DNA of 48,081 nt from Escherichia phage AN_ECEAS: sequence record PP944860.1. The stretch is one strand, 5' to 3'. Under the pieces are notes generated by a model. It ran no database searches. It worked only from the letters and a program-made list of their open reading frames with translations, and was not told the origin of the DNA. Within the stretch, counting starts at the first letter, position 1. Each line of letters opens with the position of its first letter. A program made the position numbers and the translations under genes. Shown piece by piece: positions 7,201 to 46,538 of this stretch.

Positions 7201-7203
7201 TTG

Positions 7204-7222
7204 ATAGCACTTTTTGTTAAAG
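7204..7222 (+). promoter_or_regulatory. dyad-motif promoter element ATAGCACTTTTTGTTAAAG
   Basis: TAGCA-N5-TGTTA; TATAGT 7242-7247; CATCGAAA start region; 27-nt leader to ATG 7281. Confidence 0.6.
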
Positions 7223-17205: not shown

Positions 17206-18167
17206 TAGTAGAAGTTTGGTATGAATGGTAGAGCCATTGATATGTTTGTGTCGAATGGGAATTGGGCTCCCGTCTGCGTTGAGTAGTTCCCTATCACAGT
17301 GCCTGGAACTGCCCTTACGGCACCACCAGACATGCATATTCCCTTGTACCTTAAGTTGTTATACCCTCCAGTAACTCTTGTTGTAGCGCCGCACCTGAGC
17401 AGTGGGAAGAACCCTCCATTTATTGACTGGAAACCGTTAGTCATTTGTATAAAGCCACCAAGCACAAACGGTCGCCTAACGCTGGAAAAGACAATCTGTC
17501 CAGAACTATTAGACATTGTGAGTCCTGGGCCAGCTACTGGAGGGTCATTCCTGAATATCACTAACTGTACGTAAGTACTTGCTGCAACGTCATCTATGCC
17601 GCTGTAGTTTATGTTGCGGCACCAAATTGTATTACCGTCGCTCTCCAGAGAAACGTTTGGGTTATCCCATTTACCAAATGGAATCCCACTGACTGGTAGT
17701 GAGGCGGCGCCGTTAACCTGTATTCCACCAACCCATGCCGCAGACATTAACCGCGAATTGCTTGAAATTGCCAAAAAGTCAGTTGAGTTCTCAACCAGTA
17801 TTCCTGGGCTTGATGAAGACGAGGCTGGGAGTATTTCAAAGCAATTTCCAGCAAAGTCAATTATACGACCTCTTGCGCCATTGAAGTCACTAAGCGTTAT
17901 CCTGCCAGTTCCGTCATTTACCTTCTGGAACCCGTTCATATAATAAACTTCAGGTACAACATCATAAGCGTCAACGTGCACAGCCTTTGTTGGAAGGCAG
18001 AATGCTGTTGATCCTGGGGACATGGTTAAACCAAAATCCCATGATGATGCTGGCGTCGAAAGTCCATTGGTATTTATTGAGCCAGTCACAGCGGGCGCTC
18101 TTAATCCTGCCGTTATTTCCATAGGTGGCCTTCCGTCGTTGAGGTCTATCAATATACCCTGTGGCAT
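17205..18167 (-). CDS. hypothetical protein co-transcribed with lipoprotein (possible tail fibre/receptor-binding accessory)
   Basis: ATG 18167 with RBS AAGGAG; start overlaps lipoprotein stop (TAATG). Confidence 0.4.
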   Translation of the reverse strand: MPQGILIDLNDGRPPMEITAGLRAPAVTGSINTNGLSTPASSWDFGLTMSPGSTAFCLPTKAVHVDAYDVVPEVYYMNGFQKVNDGTGRITLSDFNGARGRIIDFAGNCFEILPASSSSSPGILVENSTDFLAISSNSRLMSAAWVGGIQVNGAASLPVSGIPFGKWDNPNVSLESDGNTIWCRNINYSGIDDVAASTYVQLVIFRNDPPVAGPGLTMSNSSGQIVFSSVRRPFVLGGFIQMTNGFQSINGGFFPLLRCGATTRVTGGYNNLRYKGICMSGGAVRAVPGTVIGNYSTQTGAQFPFDTNISMALPFIPNFY

Positions 18168-18412
18168 TATTTCCACTCCTTAGACCCGTGATCTGCAACT
18201 GAACCGCCATAACCTCCACCAGCCTTGCTCTCAATACCAGCGTAGCGCACATCAACTTCACCAGCCGGTACAATCACGCCACCTTTCCATTTAGCCACGC
18301 ATACACCGTTTGCTTTCGTTGCACACCATCCGTCAGGACGCGGAGCAGAAGAGCAACCCACCATTATGATTGCTGCTGCTGCGATGATTGAAAGTTTGAT
18401 TAAGTTAGTCAT
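18167..18412 (-). CDS. small lipoprotein (Cor-like superinfection-exclusion candidate)
   Basis: N-terminus [20 protein letters not shown] with lipobox-like MVGC; RBS AAGGAA; own dyad-motif promoter. Confidence 0.6.
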
Positions 18413-18473
18413 TTTCGTATTCCTTGTGAGGTTCGTTTCGATGGAGTAATCATACATCATCTATAATCTTTGT

Positions 18474-18492
18474 CTTTAGCAATTCGTGCTAT
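18474..18492 (-). promoter_or_regulatory. dyad-motif promoter element (minus strand)
   Basis: Reverse complement of ATAGCACGAATTGCTAAAG; TATGAT and CATCGAAAC follow on minus strand before lipoprotein gene. Confidence 0.6.
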
Positions 18493-18493
18493 T

Positions 18494-18544: not shown

Positions 18545-18860
18545 ATCGTATACACCTATTTACGCCTCGATACGCCATAGTTACATTAAAATATCTATAT
18601 ATATCAACCCTTTACTCTTATTATTATTATTATATATATTACTGTGTATATCATGTAACTACTATTCTGTAGTGTTCCGGTTATAATTTTTATATCATGT
18701 GATTTTATACAGTATTGCGAGGCACCCATACCTATGCACCATCCGCCAAGATCGGTATACACGATATACGCACCATTTACATTGAGCTATAGCTGGGCTC
18801 AGGCAGTGAAAAACGTAACCAATAGAAATGTCTACACGTAGTTACGGATTTATACGCGTA
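18545..18860. repeat. control region A: AT-rich (ATT)n block, 10-bp palindrome AGCTATAGCT, conserved CGTAACCAAT and ACGCGTATA boxes; paralogous to region B
   Basis: Blocks 18591-18650 and 18781-18860 align by eye with 38701-38760 and 38891-38970. Confidence 0.7.
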
Positions 18861-20127: not shown

Positions 20128-20608
20128 TTGATAAATTTAATGATATCTTTAGATATGATGGTGAAAAGCTGTACTATAAAAACTGGGTAAACGGTAGAAG
20201 TAAGTCTCTTGGACTAGAGGCTGGTAGCAAACAGAATGGTTACTTGAAAGTTACAATTGGCGGCAGAAATTATAAAGTTCATAGAATTATATGGGAAATG
20301 GTTAATGGTGAAATACCTGATGGAATGGAATAGATCACATAAATCACGTAAAGGATGATAATAGGATTGAGAATCTAAGGCTGGTAACTCACAAGGAAAA
20401 CTCAAGAAATAGGAAAAAGAGGTCAGATAACTCTTCAGCAACACAGGGCGTTTCTCTGCATAAGATTACAAGGAAGTGGCAATCTTATTGCTCTGATAAT
20501 GATGGAAAAATTATGTACCTTGGATTATTTGAGGATATTAATGATGCTATTGATGCTAGGGTTAAGTTCGCCTCACAATGTGACTTCCATGAGAATCATG
20601 GTAAATAG
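20124..20608 (+). pseudogene. HNH homing endonuclease, frameshifted (N-terminal part in frame 0 to 20333, HNH core in -1 frame 20321-20608)
   Basis: Frame 0 ends ...IPDGME*; -1 frame continues IDHINHVKDDNRIENLRLV..., matching the intact paralogue at 36850..37347. Confidence 0.5.
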
Positions 20609-20678: not shown

Positions 20679-21329
20679 ATGAAAACTTCAGAACAAAACA
20701 AGCAGGTATTGAAAGCGTTATTTGAGGCTAAATCAAAGTTTGCAAAGGCTGAAAAGTCAAAGCAGAACTCGCACCTCAAGAACAAGTACGCGACCCTTGA
20801 AGACGTTTTGGCGGCTGTAGAGCCAGGACTCGCAGATAGCGGCCTTGTCATGTTTCAAGGCATGATTGATGATGAAGCCACAACTAGAATTAAGGTTGAA
20901 ACAACTGTCTATCATGCAGAATCTGGAGAGTGGGTCAGCTTCCTGACAATCGTCCCAATCAGCAAGCAAGATGCTCAAGGTTATGGGTCATCACTTACAT
21001 ACGCTCGCCGTTACGCAATCACAGCGGCGTTAGGTTTAAGCCAGGCAGATGATGATGGTCAGTTAGCAGTTAAAGGCATCAACTCATTTAAGAAAGATTT
21101 AGCTAAGTGCAACACTCTTGATGACCTGCGAGATGTATACAAAGAAGCTAAGCAGTCTCTTGATTCAGCTGGTTGGCTGGTGATTGAACCTCACATTATT
21201 GAGCGTAAGGCAGAGATTCAGGCTAATGCAACTAACGGCTTCAATCCTGCAAAACCTAAACAGGTTGCACAAAAGTCTGTTCAAGAAGAAAAAGTTGAAG
21301 TACAATCTCAAGAAATCGACACATTCTAA
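20679..21329 (+). CDS. ERF-family single-strand annealing protein
   Basis: Motif GSSLTYARRYAITAALGL typical of ERF; adjacent to SSB. Confidence 0.7.
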   Translation: MKTSEQNKQVLKALFEAKSKFAKAEKSKQNSHLKNKYATLEDVLAAVEPGLADSGLVMFQGMIDDEATTRIKVETTVYHAESGEWVSFLTIVPISKQDAQGYGSSLTYARRYAITAALGLSQADDDGQLAVKGINSFKKDLAKCNTLDDLRDVYKEAKQSLDSAGWLVIEPHIIERKAEIQANATNGFNPAKPKQVAQKSVQEEKVEVQSQEIDTF

Positions 21330-24372: not shown

Positions 24373-24395
24373 TGTGTAAAGTCTCCATTTGTAAA

Positions 24396-24414
24396 ATAGC
24401 ACGAATTGCTAAAG
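24396..24414 (+). promoter_or_regulatory. dyad-motif element with no + strand gene downstream (lies in leader of the minus-strand tailspike gene)
   Basis: Perfect ATAGCACGAATTGCTAAAG; a degenerate reverse copy at about 24462-24480. Confidence 0.35.
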
Positions 24415-24459: not shown

Positions 24460-25383
24460 TTAGTCTAGCAATTCGCTTGCCTTGTATATTCGCTTTCTTA
24501 TGCCTGACTTGAAAAAATTATCATCATTTGGCATTACCACATCAAGATCGCGATCGTCAGCAACGGCGAGTAAATCAAAAGCGTGGCGAGTGCAAGCGAT
24601 GCGTAACTTGTATTTTCTAAGCGCGTAAGCAACCATTTCCATGTTGTAGCTGGAGTAGCAAACAATCACGCAGCGGTTGCCAGTAGCAAGATGAACGCGA
24701 ATACCATCAATCCAATTATCGACAAGATAAGCGTACTCATCATCTTTAAGGGAGCCAATAACAGACACTGACTGTCGAGTATAATCTTTTGCAGCATAGC
24801 TAACATCTCCTTCCTCATTGATAAACATTACATTGCACATTTCTTCTGATATGCCGTCACTATAAGCCATAAAGCACGGGACAGCATGGATTAATTCACC
24901 TGATTTTGTTCTACCAACATCAAATCCAAACTCGCTATAAATACCCTCGTATGTACTGAGTGGAGTTGATTCTACTCTTTCCGTCCTTTCCATTATCTCC
25001 AGGCATCTTTCGTGGTCAATCTGTGCTCCCATTTTGTAGAGCTGGGCTCTTGATGCTTGCTTGTTTGCCTTGTTAACAACTTCAACCGGGATGAGGTTCA
25101 GCCACTCACCTAGAGTGTCAATACATTCACTGAATGACTCACCCCGCATCTTCATGACCCAAATAATCCCATCACCTGACCCGCACTGGTTGCAGATAAT
25201 CCCACCGTCACCATCCTCACTAACCTTGTTTGTCCAGCGAGCGCGGTCAACTCCTCCACAATAAATACATGGCTTATGCTTTTTTGTCTGGAAGAATTTT
25301 GGGTCTGCGCCGCAAATGTTTATAAGCGCCTTATCCCACAGTCCGCGCATTCTTGGTAAAACTTCTTTCTTGTCGTAGTGCAT
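24460..25383 (-). CDS. putative DNA primase (zinc-ribbon plus TOPRIM-like region)
   Basis: CIYCGG...CNQCG zinc motif; acidic DxD cluster; divergent from helicase gene. Confidence 0.45.
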   Translation of the reverse strand: MHYDKKEVLPRMRGLWDKALINICGADPKFFQTKKHKPCIYCGGVDRARWTNKVSEDGDGGIICNQCGSGDGIIWVMKMRGESFSECIDTLGEWLNLIPVEVVNKANKQASRAQLYKMGAQIDHERCLEIMERTERVESTPLSTYEGIYSEFGFDVGRTKSGELIHAVPCFMAYSDGISEEMCNVMFINEEGDVSYAAKDYTRQSVSVIGSLKDDEYAYLVDNWIDGIRVHLATGNRCVIVCYSSYNMEMVAYALRKYKLRIACTRHAFDLLAVADDRDLDVVMPNDDNFFKSGIRKRIYKASELLD

Positions 25384-25441: not shown

Positions 25442-25915
25442 TTACTCTTTAGCTTTTCGTGCTGCTTCGTTAGCGGCCTTAATCTTGCGCCATGATCGAC
25501 ACTCTGGCTTGGTGGCTAGCTCTGCTTCAGTAACTACGCGAAGCATATGACGCTTCTTACATCGAAGTGTTAGCGGCTTACCGTTTCCGTCGAATTGCAG
25601 GTCTGGTCGGCAGAACGTAGCTCGAAATCCTTCCTTATTTCTCTTATACGCATTGTGAGCTTTCTGCGCTCCTCGAGCCGAAATCATCCCGCGATCAAAC
25701 CATTGCTCTACAGTCTGGTGAGATACGTTTAACTGCTTTGCGATGTTCGCCTTTGTTCCATAGAAATCAAGAACCATCTCCAGGCGAGCACGTAGCCCAG
25801 CCTTTACCTCATCTTTCAATACGTAGTAGCCTGACGGTCGTTTGCGTTGCTTCTTGTCTTGTGTGCGTACCGTTCCGTTATTGCCGTTAATAGTTCGTTT
25901 GTCAATTTCACACAT
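25442..25915 (-). CDS. HTH DNA-binding protein (candidate transcription regulator)
   Basis: Basic protein with HTH-like segment IAKQLNVSHQTVEQWF; its RBS region abuts dyad motif 25928-25946. Confidence 0.4.
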   Translation of the reverse strand: MCEIDKRTINGNNGTVRTQDKKQRKRPSGYYVLKDEVKAGLRARLEMVLDFYGTKANIAKQLNVSHQTVEQWFDRGMISARGAQKAHNAYKRNKEGFRATFCRPDLQFDGNGKPLTLRCKKRHMLRVVTEAELATKPECRSWRKIKAANEAARKAKE

Positions 25916-25927
25916 CTCATTACCTCA

Positions 25928-25946
25928 ATAGCACTTTTTGTTAAAC
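25928..25946 (+). promoter_or_regulatory. dyad-motif promoter element ATAGCACTTTTTGTTAAAC
   Basis: Upstream of helicase gene; TATTAT-like hexamer ~20 bp downstream; 12 bp from start of divergent HTH gene. Confidence 0.55.
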
Positions 25947-26011: not shown

Positions 26012-29000
26012 ATGCTTCCAGTAGAGCGCTTAGTGGCAAACTTTGATCAAGAGAAAATCAAACAGATTCAGAAAGATTACCAGTTTGGAGACATAACTCC
26101 TTACGAATTCCAGTGTGTAACATTTGACGCAATTGGTAAGGCTATTGGTAAGTACGAGGCTCCATTCATCGCAGACCTGTCTGTATCTGCTGGTAAAACA
26201 ATAATTCTTGCCATGATTGGGAAAAGAATGGAGCAACTTGGACTTCCTTATATGGTACTGTCTCGCCAGTCAGAGATTATCAGCCAGAACGCAGAGGAAC
26301 TCCGTAACTTCGGTATCCGTAATAGCGTCTATTGCGCTGGACTTAACGTTAAATCAGTTTACTACCCAACCATAGTGGCTAGTGAGGGTACAGCTGCCAA
26401 TGGCCTGTTTAAGGGGCTTGGTGACTATGTTCCTGCTGTTATCGCGATAGATGAGTGCTTAACTGGAGACACGATGATAACCACCGATTCAGGGATGATG
26501 AGGATTGATAGCGAAGACCTTATCAATCATAAAATAAAATGCATAAACGAAAGCACTGGTGATTACTTCTATCATAAGCCAAAAAGAGTTTTTACTAATG
26601 GTGTAAGACATGTATCATCAATTAAATTAGAAAGCGGAGAGGAAATAAAATGCACGAGTACACACAAACTTTATTCGAACGGCTGCTGGGTAGGAGCGGG
26701 AAAACTTCGTATTGGGATGAATCTGTCGCTAGACGGCTCGCAGGACAAATTTACGAAAAAGCTCCTGCGTGCAAGTGTGGCTGTGGTGAAAAAGTTATGC
26801 CGCATTCAAGCAAGGGGTTAGGCGTACTTCTTAAGAACCCTTTCGATTTCTATTTGGATTACAGAACGGGGCATCATAATTCAACCGTCAACCCATCAAT
26901 GGAGGTTGATGACTTTTTACATCAAAACATTCTTGCGGCAATGGCTGGTGATGGTTGCTTGATTAAAAATACAGAAAAAGGAACGCATAGGCTATCTTGG
27001 AATATGGGAAATAAGGAGCACGCACTAAGCAAGGTTGAAAGGTTTGCAAAACTAAACCCTAGATACAGGGAGAAGAAAAACCCTGGATTTGGCGACAACT
27101 GGTTTTGCGTATCAACATCATGTACGAAAGTTCTGGATTCATATGCTGATAAGTACGGAAATTCTAAGGATGGTTACGATATTGGAAAGATATGCAGAGA
27201 GCTTGATCCAGTTGGTTGGGCTGCTTACTTTGGTGATGATGGTCATTGCACTGTAAGCTCAGGGAAGAGGGTTGTAGAAATCCACACCGAATCATTTAGC
27301 AGGCGTGAAGTTCAATCAGTAGTTGATGCGCTAATAGCATTTATTGCTAATGACGGAGTTAATGTTAGAAGCTATATTGGCGGCAAGAAAAAGAGAGAGC
27401 TTTACTCAGTATCAATAACAACGAGGTCGGCACAAGATGAGTTTTTTAAGAGAATTAGTAAGCACATGGAAAATGGCGTGGAATACAAAATCAAGCAAAA
27501 TTAAAGACATCTCACCCATTGGCAAGGAACTTGTTTGGGATATAGAGATGCCTGAGCACCATAATTTCATTGCTGACGGGGTCGTGGCACATAATTGCCA
27601 CATGGTGGACCATATGGATATCGTAGAAGCTGAAGAGAATGAGGAAACATTCGAGCAGATGAGCACGAAGAAGGGTGAGATGGTCTTTAAGGATGGTGTG
27701 AATACCGGGCTTCTTGGCACTGGTCGCGCGCAATACACGTTAATCATTACCGAAATGAAGCGTCGATGCAAGGAGAAGTACGGTCGCGAACTTCGTATCT
27801 TTGGGTTAACTGGTAGCCCGTACCGTAACAACGACCACATTGTAGTTAGTAACCCAAATGTCCGTGGATTCTGGCGCAAAACTGTAATGCAAGTGCCAAC
27901 CAGCTACCTTGTTGACTTGGGGTTCGTTGTTCCTACTGTCTACGGTGAAGTTGGTGATTTGGGCTACGACCTTAGTGAGTTCACTCCTGATGGAAGTGAT
28001 GGGGTTAAGGACTTCAGCAAGAAAGAAATGGATGCGATGGCTGCAAAGATTCACGAAAACCAAACGATGACACAAAAGATAATGGGATTTGCTGCTAGGT
28101 TTATGGAAACAAGGAATGCTGCATTGGTAACTTGCGCTGGCAAACAGCATTGCGAGGAGGCGGCAGCCGCACTTCCAGAAGGTGTTACTTGGGCGATAGT
28201 TACCAACTCCACTGGTGATAAGAAGCGTAGAGAGATACTTGAGAAGGCAGCCAGCGGAGAATATAAGTTCATATTTCAGATTGGTTGCCTCACAACTGGC
28301 GTAAACTGCCCCCCGTGGGATACAAGCATTATCCTGAGGAAGGTTGGTAGCATTACTCTACTCATTCAGTTGCTTGGTCGTGGTATGCGTATCCTTAAGA
28401 AGAAGCACAAAGAAGCTGGAATGGTAAAAGATGACCATGTTGTTCTTGATTTTGCCGGGACGCTTGACGATATGGCAGAACTCTACTTCGACCCAATTAT
28501 AGAAGAGGTTCAGGACCAGAAGTTTAAGTCATCCAGGAAAGGGGGTGATGAACCAAGAATTTGCCCAGCATGTTCTTATGAGAATTCTCCTTTCGCACGG
28601 CGCTGTAATAATGTGATTGACGGTAAACGATGCGAGCATTTTTTTCAGTTCCGTCTTTGCGAAGATATTGAGGACCCGCAGACGAAAGTTATCGTTAAGA
28701 AAGGTTGCGGAGAGAAAAATGACGTTGCAGCAAAGAACTGCCGCTGCTGCGGAGAGATGCTGATAGACCCAAATGCAAAGCTATCTGGAAAAATGTATCG
28801 GAAAGGGGACTGGTTGAGAGTTTATGACTTCAAGATTGGGTTGACAAAAAACCAGTCAGGGATCGTTGCTTCATATGAGGTAATGGCTCATAGTGGAGAT
28901 AAGTTCCGAGCTTATGAAACATTCTTCCCGGAGTCAGACCATCGTGTTTGTTCTGTCAAATGGAAGGCGTTTTGCTCAACTCACATCGAGAACAGGACTG

Positions 29001-29146
29001 AGGCTTTTAGGATTGGCAGATTGCGTAATGCTAAAATGATTATGACAAATGCACATCTTTTCCGTGCGCCGCTAAGGATTACGCACCGCAAGAATCAGAA
29101 GTCGCAAGATATTATCGCCAACAAATCATTTACGATGGAGGATTGA
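26012..29146 (+). CDS. SF2 DNA helicase interrupted by an intein in motif II (exteins 26012-26455 and 27596-29146)
   Basis: Walker A SVSAGKT; DE|CH box restored on splicing; motif VI QLLGRGMR; C-terminal zinc ribbons; reading frame is not continuous through the intein. Confidence 0.7.
26456..27595 (+). mobile_element. intein with LAGLIDADG homing-endonuclease domain (endonuclease domain in a different frame)
   Basis: N-terminal CLTGDT and block B TSTH; C-terminal ...HNFIADGVVAHN followed by Cys; two LAGLIDADG-like motifs ILAAMAGDGCL and WAAYFGDDGHC in ORF 26650..27504. Confidence 0.75.
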
Positions 29147-29147
29147 T

Positions 29148-29567
29148 ATGAAAATCACAGACAAAGGTGATTACCTCGAGTTCTATGGCGGACCGGTGAA
29201 GTCATGCCCAAAGGAAGACGATGAACAAATCTTCTGCTCTGATTGGGTGAAATACAACTATCCGCAGATTGTTTACTGGCACACGATTAACGAAAATAAA
29301 AAGAGCATTGGTCAAGCAATAAAAGACCAAGCCAAGGGGCTTCTCAAAGGTGTGTCAGACTGCTTATTTCTGATACCTGAGTCATTGCGTGGCGGTTATC
29401 CATTTGGCGCCATAGAGTTAAAGAGGGCTGGTAAAACGCAAGCAAGCCCAGTTAGCAATGAGCAAAAGTCATTCCTAAAAAGCGTAAGGGAATCAGGCGG
29501 TTTCGCAGCGGTGGCTTATGGAAGAGAGGGTTTTCTTGCGGCATTCGCAGAGATGATAAGAAAATAG
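29148..29567 (+). CDS. putative VRR-NUC-type nuclease
   Basis: 139 aa with ...GAIELKRAG... motif; coupled to helicase stop. Confidence 0.4.
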   Translation: MKITDKGDYLEFYGGPVKSCPKEDDEQIFCSDWVKYNYPQIVYWHTINENKKSIGQAIKDQAKGLLKGVSDCLFLIPESLRGGYPFGAIELKRAGKTQASPVSNEQKSFLKSVRESGGFAAVAYGREGFLAAFAEMIRK

Positions 29568-29582
29568 CACGAATTGCTAAAG
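29564..29582 (+). promoter_or_regulatory. dyad-motif promoter element ATAGCACGAATTGCTAAAG
   Basis: Overlaps stop of 29148..29567; TATTAT and CATCGAAACG follow; upstream of 29646. Confidence 0.6.
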
Positions 29583-29645: not shown

Positions 29646-29834
29646 ATGAAAGACATTATTACTAAAGAATCCCAAAGCTACTACGCCTCATACTATGAGA
29701 CAGTTAATGGTTTTAAATTTATTGATATAGAGCAAGGTGGAAACGCCGTTACGCTAACTAGCGAAAAAGATTTAAATGACATGATTTCGTTCTTAGAAAA
29801 AGTGAAAGAGCATTTAAATAGCACGAATTGCTAA
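29646..29834 (+). CDS. hypothetical protein
   Basis: Own dyad-motif promoter; RBS AGAGAGA; C-terminus NSTNC encoded by the next promoter motif. Confidence 0.45.
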   Translation: MKDIITKESQSYYASYYETVNGFKFIDIEQGGNAVTLTSEKDLNDMISFLEKVKEHLNSTNC

Positions 29835-29836
29835 AG
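29818..29836 (+). promoter_or_regulatory. dyad-motif promoter element ATAGCACGAATTGCTAAAG
   Basis: TATAGT 29856-29861, CATCGAAAC with predicted +1 near 29868; motif also encodes NSTNC* of upstream ORF. Confidence 0.6.
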
Positions 29837-29895
29837 AGATTTCGCAGGGACGCGATATAGTTACTCCATCGAAACAAAACGCAGAGAGAAAGAAA

Positions 29896-31165: not shown

Positions 31166-32299
31166 ATGGCAGCATCAAAGATTACAAATGAACAGCTTAT
31201 CGAAGAGCTGAAAAGCGGCCTGACTAACAAGGCAATTGCAGAGAAGTACGGCATGAATATTCGCAACGTTGAGCTTCGTCGCAGTAAGTTGGCTAAGAGT
31301 GGTATTGGGCATGGTAATGAAGGTATCAAGAAGCTAGTTCCTGACGGTTATTTAGTCAAGGGCACCTCAACAATGATTGATGCGGAAGGGAATGAGAAGC
31401 TGCGTTGGGTTAAGACTTCGATTGATGCTGAGAAGCAAGAAGAGATGCTTCAGCAGATTGTTAAGGCTCTTACAGACGAGGTTCCTCGCGAGACTCCAAA
31501 GCCACTCAGTGAATCAAGCTATGAAGATACATTGAGTCTCTACCCTGTATTTGATATGCACATTGGCGCAATGGCTCACCATGCAGAGTGTGGGGAGAAC
31601 TACAGTACAGAAATTGCAGAGCGAGTGCTTAACCAATACTTTGATTATGCAGTTGCTAAGGCCCCGAATTCATCAAAAGCCGTATTACTGATTGGTGGAG
31701 ACTTCCTTCACTCGGATGGAATGGAAGCTGTAACTCCAACCAGCAAGCACGTACTTGATCAAGATAGCCGTTATCATAAACTTGTCTACGTAGCTGTTCG
31801 TGCAACTCGCCGCGCCGTCAGTAAGATGCTTGACAAGCATAAAGAGGTTGAGGTTCAGATTATACCAGGCAACCACGACCTTTCTGGGATGATTTGGCTT
31901 CGAGCTGCAATGGCTGCCTTCTACATGGATGAGCCTCGTGTAAATGTTGATGCCTCACCAGCCGCTCTTCACGTGACGGAGTTTGGTAAAACATTGTTGG
32001 GTTACTGCCATGGTCATGAATTGCGAAAGCCTGACACTCGTCTTTCAACTCTTGCGCGCGACCATCGCAAAGCATTTGGTAATGCTGAATACGTTTATAC
32101 ACATAGTGGCCATTATCATCATCAGACGGTTACTGAGGGTAATCTTGGAATTGATGAGTCACACGGTCAGTTGGGTGCTAAAGATGCGTACAGCGCAAAC
32201 GGAGGGTATCGCTCTTATCGTCAGGCCTCAGTAATTATCTATAGCTCAGAGTACGGTGAAGTTGGTCGATTCACTTGCCGACCTGAAATGTTTAAGTAA
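31166..32299 (+). CDS. HTH domain fused to calcineurin-like metallophosphoesterase
   Basis: N-terminal LTNKAIAEKYGMNIRNVELRRSKL; phosphoesterase motifs DMH, GGDFLHSD, GNHD, GHE, GHYHH. Confidence 0.55.
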   Translation: MAASKITNEQLIEELKSGLTNKAIAEKYGMNIRNVELRRSKLAKSGIGHGNEGIKKLVPDGYLVKGTSTMIDAEGNEKLRWVKTSIDAEKQEEMLQQIVKALTDEVPRETPKPLSESSYEDTLSLYPVFDMHIGAMAHHAECGENYSTEIAERVLNQYFDYAVAKAPNSSKAVLLIGGDFLHSDGMEAVTPTSKHVLDQDSRYHKLVYVAVRATRRAVSKMLDKHKEVEVQIIPGNHDLSGMIWLRAAMAAFYMDEPRVNVDASPAALHVTEFGKTLLGYCHGHELRKPDTRLSTLARDHRKAFGNAEYVYTHSGHYHHQTVTEGNLGIDESHGQLGAKDAYSANGGYRSYRQASVIIYSSEYGEVGRFTCRPEMFK

Positions 32300-32317
32300 T
32301 AGCACTTTTTGTTAATA
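32299..32317 (+). promoter_or_regulatory. dyad-motif promoter element ATAGCACTTTTTGTTAATA
   Basis: Between metallophosphoesterase and HAD phosphatase genes. Confidence 0.5.
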
Positions 32318-32372
32318 AAGCCTCAAAGGATTGAGGCAAAATGAATAAACGATAACGATATGAGGAGTTGTA

Positions 32373-32847: not shown

Positions 32848-33402
32848 ATGAAAAAGTTAATCATCCTTAATGCACCCCCTGGTGCTGGAAAAGATACAGT
32901 TGCAGATATCATTGTTAATCTTGGAATTTGCAAGGATAAGGTTTCATTCAAGTCACCAATGTTTAATGTTGCAAAAGGAATACTATCAAGTGATGAGTTT
33001 GATGGATTTATTAATAATTACGATGACCGAGAGTACAAAGAATCACCACACGAATTTCTTGGTGGAATGACTGTTCGTGAATTTATGATTTGGATTAGCG
33101 AATCAGTTATGAAGCCAGTCTTTGGTGATGATGTTTTCGGCAAAAGGCTCACACAATCACTTGGTGATGGATGCTACATTTGTTCAGACGGTGGATTTGC
33201 GAGTGAAATCGAACCACTGATTGGCAACGGCGTTGAGGTTACATTGATTAGGCTTCACAGGCCTGGTTATACTTTCGAAGGAGATAGTAGGTCATACCTT
33301 AGTTGCGTCTGCGCAAGAGAGATTGATGTTGATGTTATTGAAGGTGATATTAAAAGAACTACAGAAAAAGTAATTAGTGCAATCAATAGCACGAATTGCT
33401 AA
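32848..33402 (+). CDS. P-loop kinase, probably deoxynucleoside monophosphate kinase
   Basis: N-terminal KKLIILNAPPGAGKDTVADII resembling T4 gp1-type dNMP kinase P-loop; RBS GGAG. Confidence 0.5.
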   Translation: MKKLIILNAPPGAGKDTVADIIVNLGICKDKVSFKSPMFNVAKGILSSDEFDGFINNYDDREYKESPHEFLGGMTVREFMIWISESVMKPVFGDDVFGKRLTQSLGDGCYICSDGGFASEIEPLIGNGVEVTLIRLHRPGYTFEGDSRSYLSCVCAREIDVDVIEGDIKRTTEKVISAINSTNC

Positions 33403-36834: not shown

Positions 36835-36853
36835 CATTATCAATTTGTGCTAT
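36835..36853 (-). promoter_or_regulatory. dyad-motif promoter element, variant ATAGCACAAATTGATAATG (minus strand)
   Basis: TATAAT follows 22 nt after the TTGATA arm; upstream of 35196..36779. Confidence 0.5.
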
Positions 36854-37347
36854 TTGCCATGATTTGGGTGATAACCCAGCCTCACCTCTGCAACAATTCT
36901 TGCCTCACATGCAGAGATAAAGTCATCAAAAAAACCAAGGTGAACAGTCTTTCCACCACTCTGTATTGAGGCCCTCCACTTACCTGTTCTTTTGTATATG
37001 GCGACTCCAGTTACACCACTTTTATTATCAAACCTTAATGATGAGTTCATTGAATTCACTTTTTGGGTAACAAGCCTTAGATTTTCAATCCTATTGTCAC
37101 GCCTATTTCCATTTATGTGGTCTATGAATAGACAATCAGGTATGTCTCCATTAGTCATCTCCCATATAATTCTGTGAGCCATTGTGTAGCCGATTCCCTT
37201 ATTGCTAACCCTAACGTACCCGCTTGTTGTAACCTCCGTGTTAACTGGCTTATTTGCATATTTTGTATTCCAAGATTGAGTTCTATCTGACCTCTCCTTT
37301 CTGTACAAAACTGAATCTTTTATATAAAAAATTTCATTCCAGTTCAT
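36850..37347 (-). CDS. HNH homing endonuclease
   Basis: Motif IDHINGNRRDNRIENLRLV plus C-terminal AP2-like region; ATG 37347 overlaps upstream stop. Confidence 0.65.
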   Translation of the reverse strand: MNWNEIFYIKDSVLYRKERSDRTQSWNTKYANKPVNTEVTTSGYVRVSNKGIGYTMAHRIIWEMTNGDIPDCLFIDHINGNRRDNRIENLRLVTQKVNSMNSSLRFDNKSGVTGVAIYKRTGKWRASIQSGGKTVHLGFFDDFISACEARIVAEVRLGYHPNHGK

Positions 37348-37730
37348 GAGTATTTTGCTTCCATTTTGTATGTGCCACACAATGTTTTAAAGCCAACGTC
37401 ATCCCTGTACAGCTGCCATGCAAAGCCACCCTCATCATAGATGTACCCCGCTTGCTGGCCCAGTCCAGAGTGAAGGTTTACGATATATCTCTTGCCTTCT
37501 TTGAAGTCTTTCTTAACTCCTGACTTATGGTTAACATTAGTGCAGTAAAGCGTCTTCGTCTTAATGTATTTCCCACGCTCTTCAAGATTAATCCACTTGC
37601 CATTTTTCTTGATTTGCTCAAATTCAACTTCCTCAGCGACACCGTTAACCCACTGGTGAATCTTTTTAACGCGAGCTTTAAACAGTTTGTTATCGTTGCT
37701 AATCCAATTTTTGGTTATCGTAGTAGTCAT
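37344..37730 (-). CDS. hypothetical protein
   Basis: ATG 37730 preceded by RBS GAAGAGAG and a complete dyad-motif promoter. Confidence 0.45.
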   Translation of the reverse strand: MTTTITKNWISNDNKLFKARVKKIHQWVNGVAEEVEFEQIKKNGKWINLEERGKYIKTKTLYCTNVNHKSGVKKDFKEGKRYIVNLHSGLGQQAGYIYDEGGFAWQLYRDDVGFKTLCGTYKMEAKYS

Positions 37731-37780
37731 TATTTTACTCTCTTCGTTGTTTCATTTCGATGAAATAACTATACAGGAAA

Positions 37781-37794
37781 AGCCCCGAAGGGCT
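37781..37794 (-). terminator. terminator-like hairpin embedded in a promoter spacer (minus strand)
   Basis: AGCCC-CGAA-GGGCT stem; T4 on minus strand; sits between dyad motif and -10 hexamer. Confidence 0.4.
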
Positions 37795-37811
37795 TTAGCA
37801 ATTCGTGCTAT
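37793..37811 (-). promoter_or_regulatory. dyad-motif promoter element (minus strand) with terminator hairpin in its spacer
   Basis: Minus strand reads motif, GC hairpin plus T-run, TATAGT, CATCGAAATG, RBS, ATG 37730. Confidence 0.6.
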
Positions 37812-37956
37812 TTCGTGCCTTCTCAATCGCCTTCAGCATAATCTCGTGAGACTCAAGCAAGTCCTCGTTGAACCAGTCTCCGCAAGGCCACCCCTTCCCA
37901 CTGTAAGCGGCAACAACGCTCAAGTCGTAATAGTTAATGTCAGATGGTAGAAGCAT
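37795..37956 (-). CDS. hypothetical small protein (53 aa)
   Basis: Below track cutoff; RBS AAGGTGA; ends ...NSTNC* inside the downstream promoter motif. Confidence 0.3.
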   Translation of the reverse strand: MLLPSDINYYDLSVVAAYSGKGWPCGDWFNEDLLESHEIMLKAIEKARNSTNC

Positions 37957-38409: not shown

Positions 38410-38428
38410 CATTAGCAAAAAGTGCTAT
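38410..38428 (-). promoter_or_regulatory. dyad-motif promoter element (minus strand), ATAGCACTTTTTGCTAATG
   Basis: Upstream of 38171..38356; iteron block immediately upstream. Confidence 0.55.
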
Positions 38429-38443
38429 TCGTTGGATTTATCT

Positions 38444-38544
38444 ATTGTTGCAGCTATTGCAATGATTATCATGATTATTGCACATATAGCAATATTGCAT
38501 GGAATGCAATGATGTTTTTGATTGTTGCAGAATTTGCAATGATT
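38444..38544. repeat. iteron-like array: ATTGTTGCAG-N3-TTGCAATGATT twice (38444-38467, 38521-38544) plus palindrome GCAATATTGC and ATGCAATGATG between
   Basis: Direct 24-bp repeats ~77 bp apart and TGCAAT-containing dyads. Confidence 0.6.
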
Positions 38545-38664
38545 GATGTGGGGTGAATGAATAGTGGATGAACTACCATACAAGTTGATTTTGATTCTTG
38601 CTGAGCCAATTTGGATATACACGTTATCGAAGTTATGGTGTGTATATGAGGTGCGCTTCCGAAG

Positions 38665-38975
38665 AATCATACACGCCTACCACGCGAGATTACGCAATGG
38701 TTACATAATAATATCTATATATATCAACCTTTTACTATATTATTATTATTATTATATATATGTATGTATATGGTGTAGATTGGTCGTATGGATGGGTCGA
38801 TAGTTTTTCTATGAAAACTACTAATTTTATCTATATAGATACATATGCATACCCCCGGCGAATCCGCGTAAAATCTTACACAGGGTAATTACACCAGCTA
38901 TAGCTGGGCTGAGAGGTCAAAAAGCGTAACCAATGCAGATATAAACACAACATAACACTTGATAACGCGTATATT
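38665..38975. repeat. control region B: paralogue of region A
   Basis: Shares AT-rich (ATT)n block, palindrome CCAGCTATAGCTGG (38894-38907), AAAGCGTAACCAATG and AACGCGTATA boxes. Confidence 0.7.
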
Positions 38976-39028
38976 CATGATACCATGGTTTCATCTTAAC
39001 GAAGAGCAACCAATCAGGAGTAACGAAT

Positions 39029-39550: not shown

Positions 39551-39651
39551 TAGGTATCCTAGTAGACTACCATACCACTTTCGGTACGGTGAGGAGGAGG
39601 TTGAGGCGGCTATGGAGTTTTATCGGAAAGCTAAGTCACTCCTGAATGGAA

Positions 39652-39670
39652 ATAGCACTTTTTGCCTAAC
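39652..39670 (+). promoter_or_regulatory. dyad-motif promoter element ATAGCACTTTTTGCCTAAC
   Basis: CATAAT-like hexamer and CATCGAAACG follow; upstream of 39733. Confidence 0.55.
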
Positions 39671-39732
39671 GCAATAATGCCATGGATGGCATAATTATCT
39701 CATCGAAACGAGAGGCACAAAGGAAAACGAAA

Positions 39733-39921
39733 ATGGCTAAGCGCATCACTAAAGAACTTAAAGTCCTGAATAAAGAAAACGTAATCACCATCCTGACAAT
39801 GTTCGGATACAACGAAGAGTCAGCGATTGCAAAGGTTGAGGCTGGTTACGATGTTGCAGTACGTAGTATGCCGGAAGCAACCTCAAAAGGTATCGCCGAC
39901 TTCCTGGCTACCTGCTACTGA
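39733..39921 (+). CDS. hypothetical protein
   Basis: ATG 39733 with RBS AAAGGAAAA; dyad-motif promoter 39652-39670. Confidence 0.45.
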   Translation: MAKRITKELKVLNKENVITILTMFGYNEESAIAKVEAGYDVAVRSMPEATSKGIADFLATCY

Positions 39922-39976: not shown

Positions 39977-40162
39977 ATGAAAACTAAAATGGTACATAAG
40001 AGCGAAGTTAAGATTGGCGATACTGTTATCCATCGTGGCTATCTTAGAACTGTAAATGCCAACACTTTTAGTAAGGATGAGTTTATGGGACTACTTCTTT
40101 GGGGCGACTCCTACCGGCTTGGGCAGGAGATGGTTGAAGTTATAATTGATGTTAAGTTTTGA
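39977..40162 (+). CDS. hypothetical protein
   Basis: RBS CTGGAGAAA. Confidence 0.45.
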   Translation: MKTKMVHKSEVKIGDTVIHRGYLRTVNANTFSKDEFMGLLLWGDSYRLGQEMVEVIIDVKF

Positions 40163-40181
40163 ATAGCACAAATTGTTAAAC
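40163..40181 (+). promoter_or_regulatory. dyad-motif promoter element ATAGCACAAATTGTTAAAC
   Basis: TATAGT ~20 bp downstream; upstream of 40239. Confidence 0.55.
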
Positions 40182-40469: not shown

Positions 40470-40699
40470 TTACAATTAACCTGTCAGAGAAAGATGCAGC
40501 AATCCTTAAATCGATCATAATGAAGCCGATGTACTCTACGCTCACCTTTGAGCAGATGCGTGTCGTAAAAGAGACTAGCGCGCAAATCAACAATCAGCAG
40601 TTCGACGTATCAGACTTCGAGTCATCTCGCCAGTACGAGCAGCTAAGCGTGCAGAATGCTGGCTACCTCACTAACTGGGATAAGGCGACAAAGAGATGA
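40466..40699 (+). CDS. hypothetical protein
   Basis: ATGA-coupled ORF. Confidence 0.4.
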   Translation: MITINLSEKDAAILKSIIMKPMYSTLTFEQMRVVKETSAQINNQQFDVSDFESSRQYEQLSVQNAGYLTNWDKATKR

Positions 40700-40842
40700 T
40701 TTACATTCACACTTACTATACAGGAAAGTTTAACAGCGTTAAGCACGTGCGTGTGCATGAAACATACGAATCGGCACATAGTCAGCTTAGAGTTCTTGGT
40801 GGAACAATTACAATGTGTGAAATTGTTGAAGAATACAGATAG
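40696..40842 (+). CDS. hypothetical small protein (48 aa)
   Basis: ATGA-coupled; stop TAG lies inside promoter motif 40839-40857. Confidence 0.3.
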   Translation: MIYIHTYYTGKFNSVKHVRVHETYESAHSQLRVLGGTITMCEIVEEYR

Positions 40843-40857
40843 CACGAATTGCTAAAC
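40839..40857 (+). promoter_or_regulatory. dyad-motif promoter element ATAGCACGAATTGCTAAAC
   Basis: Hairpin in spacer, CATAAT-like hexamer, CATCGACAACG; upstream of 40915. Confidence 0.55.
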
Positions 40858-40914
40858 AATCGCCGGAGTAATCCGGCATAATTACTACATCGACAACGAA
40901 CGAGTAAATGAAGA

Positions 40915-41899: not shown

Positions 41900-42061
41900 A
41901 TGATTAAGATCGTATACATTGGTCAGGATGATTATATGGCGCGCTTAAAGCATGGCGACGTATTCTATGCAGAGCCTAGCGAAGATGGCAATGGGTACTT
42001 CATTAAAAACAAGCACGATGAGGAGCTTTACATAGCAAACCACGAGGCTCTTGTTTACTAA
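41900..42061 (+). CDS. hypothetical small protein (53 aa)
   Basis: RBS AGTGAGGTGA; below track cutoff. Confidence 0.3.
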   Translation: MIKIVYIGQDDYMARLKHGDVFYAEPSEDGNGYFIKNKHDEELYIANHEALVY

Positions 42062-42201
42062 TGGATAACTACGAAACACCAAGCCAGTGGGCTAAACGGA
42101 TGATGGATGAGGCTAAGACTGGCGAGGTTGCCATGATGTACTTCGAGCTGATGAATCTATGGAAGGAGCGTGAAGATAAAATAAACAGCACGAATAGCTA
42201 A
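42061..42201 (+). CDS. hypothetical small protein (46 aa)
   Basis: Coupled ORF ending ...NSTNS* within promoter motif 42185-42203. Confidence 0.3.
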   Translation: MDNYETPSQWAKRMMDEAKTGEVAMMYFELMNLWKEREDKINSTNS

Positions 42202-43928: not shown

Positions 43929-44453
43929 ATGAAAGACGAAAACTTCACCAGTCAGGCGCAGGAAAAGGTCAGCTCTGGCAACTTTAAAGCCATGTACAAT
44001 AAAAAGTACTCAGACATTACAACGCTAGCCAAAAACCGAAGCATGACACCCGAACAGCTATTTGAATTCGCCGTGAAATACTTCTCATGGGCTGAGGACC
44101 AGGCAATCAAGGCAATCGAGACAGCCAGCTTCCAGGGTGTGGTAAAAGAGAGCCTGGTGCACAAACCACGAGTCTTCACGCTAACCGGATTCTGCCTTTA
44201 CTGCGGCGTCACCCATAGCGCCATCGAGAAATGGAGGAAGTCGGCTGGTTACGATGAGGTGATGGCATTCATTGATTCCGTGATTCGCGAGCAAAAGTAC
44301 CAGTTAGCAGCGTCCGGCATCATTAACCCTGGCATGATTTCTAAAGAGCTCGGTATCGACAAGCCGCAGGAGATTAACATCACCAGCACATCTTCAGCCA
44401 ACGACGTCGATACGATGAAAGAGGCGCTCGAATCGGTTATTAGCAAGTTGTAG
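43929..44453 (+). CDS. putative terminase small subunit
   Basis: 174 aa, RBS AAGGAGG, immediately upstream of HNH and TerL. Confidence 0.5.
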   Translation: MKDENFTSQAQEKVSSGNFKAMYNKKYSDITTLAKNRSMTPEQLFEFAVKYFSWAEDQAIKAIETASFQGVVKESLVHKPRVFTLTGFCLYCGVTHSAIEKWRKSAGYDEVMAFIDSVIREQKYQLAASGIINPGMISKELGIDKPQEINITSTSSANDVDTMKEALESVISKL

Positions 44454-44520: not shown

Positions 44521-44997
44521 ATGGATTGGGGTGATTTCTTCTATCTTAGTGATGATTCCGTTTCTGGTATAAAGTGGAAGGTTAATAAGGGTCGGTCAAT
44601 GGCTGGTGACGACGCTTTAACATCTGTTGGTAATGGATATTACAAAGGCAGACTCAACCAGAAGACAACGTACGCCCACAGGGTCGTTTACTTTCTTAAC
44701 TATGGCGTAATCCCTGATGTTATAGATCATATGGATGGTAATGGGCTTAACAACTCAATAGAAAACCTAAGGGATGGCACCACAGCCAAGAATATGCAAA
44801 ACAAGCTATGTAAGGGTTACAGCTACAATAAGAGGGATGACGTTTATTATGCTCAGGTAACTACAAATGGGGTGACTAAACATGTAGGTTCTTTTGCAAG
44901 CAAGGAATTGGCTATTGCTGCTTACCTAAAGGAGAAGGAATTGCAGCATGATTTCTATAACAAAGAGAGGAAGATATGCTTGTTTGGGAAAGTATGA
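44521..44997 (+). CDS. HNH homing endonuclease (terminase-associated position)
   Basis: Motif VIDHMDGNGLNNSIENLR plus AP2-like C-terminus; RBS AAGGAGAA; overlaps TerL start. Confidence 0.65.
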   Translation: MDWGDFFYLSDDSVSGIKWKVNKGRSMAGDDALTSVGNGYYKGRLNQKTTYAHRVVYFLNYGVIPDVIDHMDGNGLNNSIENLRDGTTAKNMQNKLCKGYSYNKRDDVYYAQVTTNGVTKHVGSFASKELAIAAYLKEKELQHDFYNKERKICLFGKV

Positions 44998-46538
44998 GCC
45001 AGCAGGAAAAGCTGGCTGTAAAACTTATATCAGAGAATAGTTTTGAGGGATTTTTAAGGTGCTGGTTTTCCATTACTCAGGGTGAGAGATACATCCCTAA
45101 CTGGCACCACAAGTATCTTTGCAGAATCATCGATGAGATTATCGCAGGTGAGCGTAAGGACACAATCATCAACATAGCACCCGGGAGTGGGAAGACAGAG
45201 ATAGCATCAATTCACTTCCCAGCCTACTCCATGGTTAAGTTGAAGAAGGTAAGGAACCTTAACATCTCGTTTGCCGACTCACTTGTTAAGCGTAACTCTA
45301 AGCGAGTGCGTGACCTGATTAAGTCGGTTGAGTTCCAGGAGTTGTGGCCCTGCAAGTTTGGCACATGTAAGGATGATGAGCTACAGATTCTGGATGAGTC
45401 TGGTAAGGTTCGGTTTGAGTCAATATCTAAGGCTGCTGGAGGCCAAATAACCGGCGCAAGGGGTGGATATATAACGGATTCATATAGCGGAGCGGTTCTG
45501 TTAGATGATTTTGACAAACCAGCCGACATGCTTTCTGCTGTTTTTCGCGCTAACAATCACGTGATGCTAAAGAATACAATACGCTCTCGTAGGGCGAGCT
45601 CCGTAAAAGGAAAGGCGACGCCGATTATCTCTATCCAACAGCGCCTTCATGTGAATGATAGTACGTGGTTCATGATGAATGGCGGTATGGGTATTAGCTT
45701 CGACTTGATTAAGATACCGGCGCTCGTAACTGAGGATTACGTCGAAACGCTTCCTGACTGGATTAAGCAGCAATTCATTGATGACGTTCTATCAAGCGAA
45801 TATATTGAGCGTGATGGTGTTAGGTACTATAGCTATTTCCCTGGCAAGGAATCTGTTCACGACCTAGTTGCAATGTGGGATTCTGATAGCTATACATTCC
45901 TTAGCCAGTATCAGCAAGAACCAGTAGCACTTGGCGGCAACCTGATTAACGTAGACTGGCTTCAACGCATTAGCGACACTCTGCGACCGCCAGCTAAGTA
46001 CGATTACAGGTTTATGGTCCTTGATACTGCGATGACAACCAAAAGTTACAGCGACTTTAGTGTCATGCAGCTATGGGGTTATAAGGATGGGAAGATTTAT
46101 CTGCTTGACCAGCGGCGCGGTAAATTTGAAGCTCCTGAGCTCGAGGCTGAGTTATTGAATTTCGAGAAGATGGCTAGGGCATCCAATCAGATAGATGGCA
46201 TCCTTCGTAAAATCATCATCGAGAAGAAAGCCTCTGGTATTGGCCTGATTCAATCAGCCGGAAGGGTTATGCGAACGCCTATCGAGCCGTACGTTCCTGA
46301 TAACGATAAGCTGACTCGCGTAATGAGTGCATTGCCGCAGATTAAAGCTGGTAACGTAATCCTTCCGGAGTCTGCTACTTGGCTTAATGGCTTGCTAACG
46401 GAGATTGCGGCATTCACGGCAGATGATTCACATGTTCACGATGACCAGATAGACTGTTTGACAATGGCTGTCAACCTGGTACTGAACATTGCAGAAGACC
46501 CTAAATCGAGGATGATGCGCCTCGCTGGCATCAAATAG
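44976..46538 (+). CDS. terminase large subunit
   Basis: Walker A IAPGSGKT, Walker B VLLDD, C-terminal nuclease acidic motifs; RBS AGAGAGGAAG. Confidence 0.8.
   Translation: MLVWESMSQQEKLAVKLISENSFEGFLRCWFSITQGERYIPNWHHKYLCRIIDEIIAGERKDTIINIAPGSGKTEIASIHFPAYSMVKLKKVRNLNISFADSLVKRNSKRVRDLIKSVEFQELWPCKFGTCKDDELQILDESGKVRFESISKAAGGQITGARGGYITDSYSGAVLLDDFDKPADMLSAVFRANNHVMLKNTIRSRRASSVKGKATPIISIQQRLHVNDSTWFMMNGGMGISFDLIKIPALVTEDYVETLPDWIKQQFIDDVLSSEYIERDGVRYYSYFPGKESVHDLVAMWDSDSYTFLSQYQQEPVALGGNLINVDWLQRISDTLRPPAKYDYRFMVLDTAMTTKSYSDFSVMQLWGYKDGKIYLLDQRRGKFEAPELEAELLNFEKMARASNQIDGILRKIIIEKKASGIGLIQSAGRVMRTPIEPYVPDNDKLTRVMSALPQIKAGNVILPESATWLNGLLTEIAAFTADDSHVHDDQIDCLTMAVNLVLNIAEDPKSRMMRLAGIK

Follow-up and report, generated by a model that had tools for sequence, protein, structure and literature searches.

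Gene ends pressed against a repeated promoter element in a T1-like Escherichia phage, and the resemblance of that element to host marboxes

The stretch of DNA considered here, which we call the window, is the 48,081-nt sequence of Escherichia phage AN_ECEAS (PP944860.1), and our subject is a short repeated motif that overlaps the ends of many of its genes. A 6-kb segment of the window is 100% identical to Escherichia phage ES (OR466728.1; Drexlerviridae, Braunvirinae; T1-like), of which the window is a rotated copy, and in comparisons between phages 'ES' denotes the phage of this window. At the focal locus a small ORFan gene lies between two perfect copies of the motif, the second of which, AATAGCACGAATTGCTAA (29817-29834, + strand), forms the 3′ end of the gene and is followed by a -10 hexamer, a predicted start site and the next gene (Table 1). 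An earlier examination of the letters alone, the sequence-only reading, had described such overlaps as dual coding that constrains both a promoter motif and the tails of the proteins that run into it.

The motif is far more frequent than chance would allow. With up to three mismatches, AATAGCACGAATTGCTAA occurs 14 times in the window against 0.04 expected from shuffled sequence, and a relaxed search finds about 19 copies in the 48 kb, 18 of the 19 being oriented toward the downstream gene, with 72-85 nt between the 18-mer and the next ATG. At up to two mismatches, Rtp carries 20 copies, T1 23 and OzMSK 18, where about 1.5 are expected. An alignment of 96 copies from five phages (ES, ACG-M12, Rtp, T1 and OzMSK, the set used in every five-phage comparison below) has high information at ATAGCAC, TTG and TAAA, with positions 8 and 14 variable and positions 9-10 strictly A or T. 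The motif is the published direct repeat of T1 and TLS. The 2024 re-annotation of TLS (PMC11447400) describes a 21-nt direct repeat, aaATAGCACnnnTTGnTAAAA, present in 21 copies that are oriented with transcription, lie about 76 nt from start codons and split into A, T and G subgroups by their central triplet, with similar repeats in T1, Rtp and Rogue1; consensus, subgroups, orientation and start-codon distance are all shared with the motif of the window. Those authors offered a stoperator, an enhancer site or an UP element as the function of the repeat, leaving the choice open, and themselves drew the comparison with the stoperators of mycobacteriophage L5 (PMC11447400), which are likewise many short, asymmetric, transcription-oriented sites in tight intergenic spaces. 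L5 stoperators, however, bind the prophage repressor and block elongation, whereas T1-like phages are virulent and their motif keeps a fixed activating distance from a -10 hexamer. Three features seen here are absent from the main text of PMC11447400, namely that stop codons overlap the repeat, that the -10 hexamer stands at a fixed 18 bp and that the repeat matches marboxes, the binding sites of the host regulators MarA, SoxS and Rob.

A stop codon lies inside or touches the motif in 12 of the 15 window copies that have a co-directional upstream gene. In frame a (AAT AGC ACG AAT TGC TAA) the gene ends on the TAA at the motif end, as four of the 12 do; in frame c (xAA TAG) six end on TAG, and one uses a tAA over the first two bases; frame b (ATA GCA CGA ATT GCT AAa) is open, and one gene ends there on an abutting TGA. 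The exceptions are the copies at 7203, 39651 and 20604, the first of which escapes overlap because a terminator intervenes between stop codon and motif. Translation bears out the tails described from the letters, NSTNC-stop at 29646..29834, 32848..33402 and 37795..37956(-) and NSTNS-stop at 42061..42201, together with the 21-residue open reading frame (ORF) at 39612..39677 that contains NSTFCL (MEFYRKAKSLLNGNSTFCLTQ, then a stop), and the TAG of aTAGcac does end ORFs at 29567, 40842, 44453 and 46538. These are real gene ends, the genes being conserved in relatives. The earlier list, right in every coordinate, was too short: 36850..37380(-) and 38425..38670(-) also end on the motif's TAG, 31166..32299 on tAA and 39977..40162 on an abutting TGA. 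In ES, motif TAGs make up five of the eight annotated TAG stops. Whether motif variants track the reading frame upstream had been proposed as a check; they do, as is shown by TG in place of AA where the last codon is TTG (44449), and by TTGATAA, which gives NSTN-stop or KSTI-stop. In T1, the HNH gene ST8 reads through a motif copy (46142-46159, - strand) in the NST frame, the TAA of this copy being AAA (TTGCAAA); here coding appears to have altered the motif.

The pattern extends well beyond the window. Matching by hand to annotated gene ends in ACG-M12, Rtp, T1 and OzMSK gave about 61 of 72 overall, with frames a, c and b in a ratio of roughly 16:34:10. We then have an enlarged sample of four reference phages and 120 IMG/VR stretches containing the exact 19-mer (540 motif copies, in counts that include many orthologous sites), and in 404 of the 540 copies an ORF 45 codons long or longer extends to the motif. 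The stop offset, taken as the start of the stop codon relative to the first motif base, falls between -3 and +17 in 396 of these 404 ORFs: four lie at -3, 43 at -2, 39 at -1, 241 at +2, 11 at +8, four at +12 and 54 at +15, with eight beyond the motif, so that the offsets cluster at -2, -1, +2 and +15. The TAG/tAA frame is strongly favoured (291 of 404), and of the 51 open-frame ORFs 43 terminate precisely at the edge of the motif. The overlap is partly mechanical, because the motif has stops in two of its three frames; the edge endings of the open frame and the preference for the TAG/tAA frame are not forced by these stops.

What had been described as dual coding is ordinary genome compaction, in which a stop-rich promoter element is pressed on gene ends. 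The motif brings to each junction a TAG at bases 3-5, a TAA at bases 16-18 and a leading AA; in a compact genome the upstream gene would be packed up to the promoter, and its stop codon would therefore fall in or against the motif. In the commonest frame, a TAG or tAA stop leaves the protein free of any tail, in the open frame an xxA stop abuts the motif, and in the third frame the TAA at the motif end appends x-S-T-(N/F)-(C/S).

Functional dual coding, in which the tails are selected (for instance as a shared tag) or the stops couple the end of translation to a promoter or terminator, would find some comfort in the exact endings of the open-frame ORFs and in the hairpins that several spacers hold right after the stop codon, and in the 53-residue protein, the only one whose NSTNC tail is identical in all four Braunvirinae orthologues, where the motif is kept too. 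We give it scarcely any credence, since elsewhere the tail tracks the motif and not the protein. Alignment of orthologues, suggested as a check on whether the NSTNC tails are conserved, finds that they are not: the gp62-like protein ends in INSTNC in ES and ACG-M12, in INSTN in OzMSK, because the variant TTGATAA creates a TGA, and in INK-stop in T1, because the gene is there in the TAG frame. The 46-residue protein ends in NSTNS in ES and ACG-M12, and this tail is absent from its orthologue Rtp12, which is five residues shorter, another gene lying before the motif; the Cro-like regulator has four C-termini in five phages (KAKE, KKSTI, EQGK and NSIFS), according to how the motif abuts it. The 61 frame-a tails of the enlarged sample (NSTNC, NSTFC, NSTNS, NSTN and others), which vary with motif subgroup, fall in 30 ORF clusters unrelated by BLASTP, some of the ORFs probably being spurious. 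Most overlaps add no tail at all, and the motif is equally conserved where no gene precedes it (copies 18476 and 25927). Among the orthologues of the five phages, no tail was found to be conserved independently of the overlapping DNA signal. Since absence, shift or mutation of the motif removes or changes the tails, and since about 30 unrelated clusters carry them, they are best read as passive read-outs of a regulatory sequence, by-products and not functional peptides, and the selected-peptide version of dual coding is largely refuted by these comparisons. Of the double constraint first proposed, the protein half, a functional constraint on the tails, finds no support, and the regulatory half is confined to the two outermost 5′ bases.

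As a promoter element, which is what the sequence-only reading had called it, the motif holds up well, with a fixed orientation, 18 bp to a -10 hexamer and the distance to the ATG given above. Among 89 forward copies from the five phages, the best -10 hexamer lies 17-19 bp after the 20-bp box in 82 (12% in the shuffled control) and exactly 18 bp after it in 67; hexamer positions A2 and T6 are invariant in the 82 copies, and where transcription should start there is a conserved CATCGAAAC. Sigma-70 sites with both hexamers show no enrichment (39 against 42.2 expected), and only three cassettes are flagged as two-hexamer promoters, via TAAACA. We consider it very probable that the 18-mer is the upstream element of a repeated, -35-less T1-like promoter cassette, and that stops and tails are by-products of its packing. 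In such a cassette the motif and an 18-bp free spacer would come first, a sigma-70 -10 hexamer next, then the CATCGAAAC start region and, ahead of the next gene, a ribosome-binding site. In nearly all cassettes, CATCGAAAC(G)AAAC and then GAGAG-type ribosome-binding sites stand about 12 nt past the -10 hexamer (e.g., 29866-29880), and the CATCGAAAC region also occurs at a sigma-70-like early promoter (38959-38986); this conserved start region may influence mRNA stability or translation. At 37774-37787 (-), 40861-40878, 32320-32337 and 29842-29855 the 18-bp spacer is taken up by a G+C-rich hairpin, that of the 37795(-) cassette resembling an intrinsic terminator, and the annotated T1 terminators 38973, 39998 and 41980 lie 3 to 7 nt past the motif and extend across the -10 hexamer. 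At such hairpin-bearing sites stop codon, terminator and promoter are interleaved.

Several known classes of site fit poorly and were rejected. A sigma-54 promoter is suggested by TAGCACGAATTGC, which resembles TGGCAC-N5-TTGC but has AG and not GG, with a spacing 2 bp short; at up to two mismatches the consensus TGGCACGNNNNTTGCW matches no full motif copy (11 matches in the window against 7.7 expected), the lone related match being a truncated motif-like sequence at 24467-24482(-). For Lrp, whose consensus is YAGHAWATTWTDCTR, the palindromic ends fit, the centre and the invariant C7 do not, and motif copies need two to three mismatches (94 matches in the window against 109.5 expected). The MotA/AsiA middle promoters of T4 are a nearer parallel, in that they too are -35-less and an upstream box with a -10 hexamer defines a phage promoter class read by the host polymerase. 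The MotA box, however, is centred near -30, some 12 bp from the -10 hexamer, whereas the gap here is 18-21 bp; homologues were not found among 30 small or uncharacterised window proteins, and a MotA-type promoter was rejected.

Host regulators provide a much closer match. The classical MarA/SoxS/Rob site is AYnGCACnnWnnRYYAAAY and the marbox derived from chromatin immunoprecipitation (ChIP) is gcannwwntgnnaaa; at class II marbox promoters a forward box lies over the -35 position, centred between -36 and -55, and the micF site lies at about -41. The first pattern occurs within one mismatch 15 times in the window (1.07 expected) and the second exactly 13 times (0.89 expected), nearly all of these matches being motif copies, and across the 89 copies conservation mirrors the degeneracy of the marbox at every specified position but 19. 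In E. coli K-12, the micF box, ACAGCACTGAATGTCAAAAC, has a 19-bp gap to its TAGAAT hexamer and a measured centre of -41.5. The phage cassettes have the same orientation and an 18-bp gap; if transcription starts 7 nt past the -10 hexamer, they are centred near -40.5, inside the span given for class II. The box of the mar promoter, ATGCCACGTTTTGCTAAATC, is identical to copy 46534 over 14 contiguous nt; the G subgroup resembles the CACG-N7-AAA layout of mar and the T subgroup the CACT-N7-AAA layout of micF, and the cassettes share the weak or absent -35 hexamer of class II marbox promoters. They differ in lying in a phage genome, in about 19 copies per 48 kb, and in being much nearer to consensus than chromosomal sites. 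What is new here is the fixed 18-bp relation to the -10 hexamer together with this close class II fit.

On these grounds we put at close to an even chance, if slightly under it, that the motif is a near-consensus class II marbox activated by host MarA, SoxS or Rob, any of which would bind the box and recruit RNA polymerase, replacing the -35 contact. The host regulators would be the likeliest activators because the phage encodes no AraC-type protein: a MarA/SoxS/Rob profile gave a best E-value of 0.27 against all six-frame segments of the window, and in 30 small or uncharacterised window proteins Pfam scans detected no domain of the AraC, MotA, AsiA or sigma type.

Among phage proteins the only one recognised as DNA-binding is a Cro-like helix-turn-helix regulator, 53-89% identical across the five phages from T1 to ES, helix-turn-helix included. 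On the main rival reading the motif would be the operator or activator site of a dimer of this protein at the inverted repeat TAGCA-N5-TGCTA, its likeness to a marbox being coincidental. In each of the five phages the divergent promoter region of the regulator gene contains a motif copy, the half-sites stand 10 bp apart, and the + early arm opens with the ordinary sigma-70-like promoter at 38959-38986, so that an early phage factor is possible; the screen of host mutants described below named no host regulator. We nevertheless think this unlikely. Conservation is asymmetric, with G4 at 99% and its symmetric partner C14 at 62%, the conserved C7/T11 and A17-A18/A0-A1 pairs are not complementary, and orientation to the -10 hexamer is fixed in 89 of the 96 copies from the five phages, unusual for a symmetric dimer site, while a chance match to about 21 bits of marbox consensus, with class II orientation and spacing besides, is improbable.

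The motif might also act on RNA polymerase directly and without any factor, as an UP-like element or a displaced substitute for the -35 hexamer, an option listed by the TLS authors (PMC11447400) that we hold to be improbable. It lies at about -51 to -34, overlapping the UP-element zone, and its 3′ end, TAAACA or TAAAGA, makes a weak -35-like hexamer at 18-bp spacing, but the conserved core is GCAC...TTG...TAAA and not the A/T tracts of an UP element, and TTGCTA, tried as a -35 hexamer and rejected, is 22 bp from the -10 hexamer and so too far away. Moreover, perfect copies in reversed orientation lie over sigma-70-like promoters of structural-gene homologues, either in the spacer or at about +1 to +20. 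The copy at 24395-24412 is kept and perfect in all five phages and, seen on the - strand, has an extended -10 (TGcTACAAT) on one side and, on the other, the ribosome-binding site for the tail-fibre-homologue gene, an operator-like position. In T1, a reversed copy at 15070-15086 (-) is set between the two hexamers of TTGACG-16-TATTAT, the sigma-70-like promoter ahead of the major head gene, and another at 18834-18850 (-) has a similar position upstream of the tape-measure chaperone gene; at the former, a terminator-like hairpin then follows in the 5′ leader. Since they lie over sigma-70-like promoters, the reversed copies point to a site bound by a separate protein, and they fit a protein that activates from -40 and may repress over the core promoter.

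Several points weigh against activation by the host regulators, or against too firm a use of the numbers given above. The stop offsets are not independent counts, because orthologous sites are included, and it is from the -10 hexamer that the start sites of the cassettes and their centre near -40.5 are deduced. Compared with a marbox the motif is under extra constraint, positions 3, 11 and 12 being fixed as well, and position 19 (Y) fails in most copies. Unstressed cells contain little MarA or SoxS, and much of the Rob protein is probably inactive. The phage has a helix-turn-helix regulator of its own with a motif copy in its promoter region. Finally, a Keio single-gene screen with the T1-like phage LL5 yielded only lipopolysaccharide genes, TolC, PpiB and SecB, and reported none of rob, marA and soxS as required; the outcome speaks against dependence on any single one of the three and is compatible with redundancy among MarA, SoxS and Rob, though it lends the marbox reading no support. 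A literature search that lacked most subscription journals found no publication linking marboxes or MarA/SoxS/Rob to T1-like phages.

The suggestion that cassettes mark insertions beside pre-existing genes is borne out by genome comparison at the ORFan and HNH sites. Neither 50,697 phage records nor IMG/VR yielded a homologue of the ORFan of the focal locus. Where ES carries it, OzMSK has an unrelated insert, likewise between two cassettes, and ACG-M12 and Rtp have one cassette. Cassette and HNH gene follow directly after the tape-measure gene in ACG-M12 and directly after the small terminase gene in ES, and in both the C-terminus of the upstream protein is unchanged and the upstream stop codon coincides with the 5′ edge of the motif. 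Inserted genes (HNH endonucleases and ORFans) would join at the motif boundary, often bringing or duplicating a cassette. The PeSL cassettes of T4-type phages are mobile promoter-stem-loop units found beside variable genes, and the likeness is that in ES and OzMSK, too, lineage-specific genes stand between repeated promoter units; the two kinds of cassette are unrelated in sequence and in phage family, and recombination at the T1-like cassettes is inferred from genome comparison only. The OzMSK insert (35386-35595) holds two copies of a 21-nt direct repeat, GTTGCAAACGTAGGCCGGAGC, and an unannotated 28-residue ORF ending in NSTNC-stop. Between the exonuclease VIII and Erf homologue genes of the window lies an unannotated HNH_3 remnant with an in-frame stop (20124-20608), which ends at the TAG of motif copy 20604.

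Table 1. The focal locus, the other motif copies of the window and the genes beside them
Feature	Position	Strand	Remarks
Focal motif	29817..29834	+	gene 29646..29834 reads N-S-T-N-C-stop in frame
62-aa ORFan gene	29646..29834	+	ends KEHLNSTNC-stop; between perfect cassettes 29563 and 29817
20-bp marbox-equivalent ATAGCACGAATTGCTAAAGA	29818..29837	+	1 mismatch to AYnGCACnnWnnRYYAAAY, 0 to gcannwwntgnnaaa
-10 hexamer TATAGT	29856..29861	+	18 bp after the 20-bp box
Predicted start site (A of CCATCGAAAC)	about 29868	+	ATG of next gene at 29896
Motif copy	29563..29580	+	its TAG is the stop of VRR-NUC gene 29148..29567
Motif copy	33385..33402	+	T1 gp62 homologue gene 32848..33402 ends INSTNC-stop
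Motif copy	37795..37812	-	53-aa gene 37795..37956(-) ends NSTNC-stop; terminator-like hairpin in spacer
Variant AACAGCACGAATAGCTAA	42184..42201	+	46-aa gene 42061..42201 ends NSTNS-stop
Copy GATAGCAC...	40838..40855	+	TAG stops gene 40696..40842; leading G from last codon AGA
T-group copy TGTAGCACTTTTTGTTAA	44449..44466	+	TAG stops small terminase gene 43929..44453
HNH gene	44521..44997	+	predicted to be driven by cassette 44449
Copy AATAGCACGTTTTGCTAA	46534..46551	+	TAG stops large terminase gene 44976..46538
Motif copy	36837..36854	-	TAG stops HNH_3 gene 36850..37380(-)
Motif copy	38412..38429	-	TAG stops 81-aa ORF 38425..38670(-)
T-group copy	32298..32315	+	tAA stop of gene 31166..32299 uses first two motif bases
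Motif copy	40162..40179	+	gene 39977..40162 stops with TGA, A being motif base 1 (open frame)
Variant AATAGCACTTTTTGCCTA	39651..39668	+	read as NSTFCL by 21-aa ORF 39612..39677
Forward copy	7203..7220	+	after major-tail-protein homologue gene (stop 7172), terminator in between
Copy AATAGCAATAATTGCTAA	20604..20621	+	upstream of Erf-homologue gene 20679..21329
Perfect copy	18476..18493	-	divergent intergenic region, no upstream gene; predicted to drive lipoprotein gene
T-group copy	25927..25944	+	divergent region between regulator and helicase genes; forward for helicase
Perfect copy	24395..24412	+	oriented against both flanking genes
Cro-like helix-turn-helix protein gene, T1 gp23 homologue	25442..25915	-	Pfam score below threshold

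Copy 25927 adjoins the ribosome-binding site of the regulator gene on the opposite strand. The helicase gene on its other side (26012-29146) carries an intein with a LAGLIDADG endonuclease and is split over three ORFs in two frames (26012..26821, 26650..27504 and 27437..29146), through two real frameshifts or sequencing errors; in ACG-M12 and Rtp the helicase is a single uninterrupted 664-aa gene. A further copy, at 27333, we treat as doubtful: it lies inside the intein, reads GCAT where the motif has GCAC, and lacks a counterpart in ACG-M12. Where the two early gene arms diverge, a very A+T-rich stretch (38700-38830) carries simple repeats (tatatata, attattattatt).

The dual-coding observation matters mainly for annotation, through the motif TAG stops, the NSTNC endings on unrelated small proteins and the starts that are mis-called. 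Pfam domains begin at residue 17 or 18 of the products of 18167..18460(-) and 39682..39921(+), in agreement with internal ATGs (18412 and 39733) that lie past the predicted start sites. The annotated starts of both genes are probably over-extended, because they lie upstream of the predicted -10 hexamer and start site and the Pfam domains begin later; copy 39651 predicts that the next gene starts at ATG 39733 and not at the annotated 39682. The record OR466728.1, than which the window is 234 nt shorter, with a coordinate offset that shifts close to the record's ends, also has misplaced names: 'terminase small subunit' labels the gene that occupies the place of the single-stranded DNA-binding protein, and the real small terminase (Pfam GP3_package, 43929..44453) is named hypothetical.

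For the biology of the family, the marbox match gives the T1/TLS repeats, whose function was left open by those who described them, a concrete and testable mechanism. The wider proposal, that T1-like phages hijack host MarA, SoxS and Rob, with about 20 near-consensus class II marboxes per genome driving most early and middle transcription, is one we advance tentatively, at a little under even chances, from the pattern of sites. It would suit phages that appear to have neither an RNA polymerase nor a sigma factor of their own and very few canonical promoters. By way of the reversed copies (at the tail fibre gene and, in T1, also at the genes for the major head protein and the tape-measure chaperone), the same host factor would hold genes back, and this repression would end once replicating genomes titrate the factor or the factor is inactivated. 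If this is true, phage development would be wired to antibiotic, oxidative and bile-salt stress signals, and these would be, in the literature searched, the first virulent coliphage family dependent on the antibiotic and oxidative stress regulon, with a bearing on phage-antibiotic therapy, on behaviour in the bile-rich gut and on the control of T1 contamination in laboratories and fermenters.

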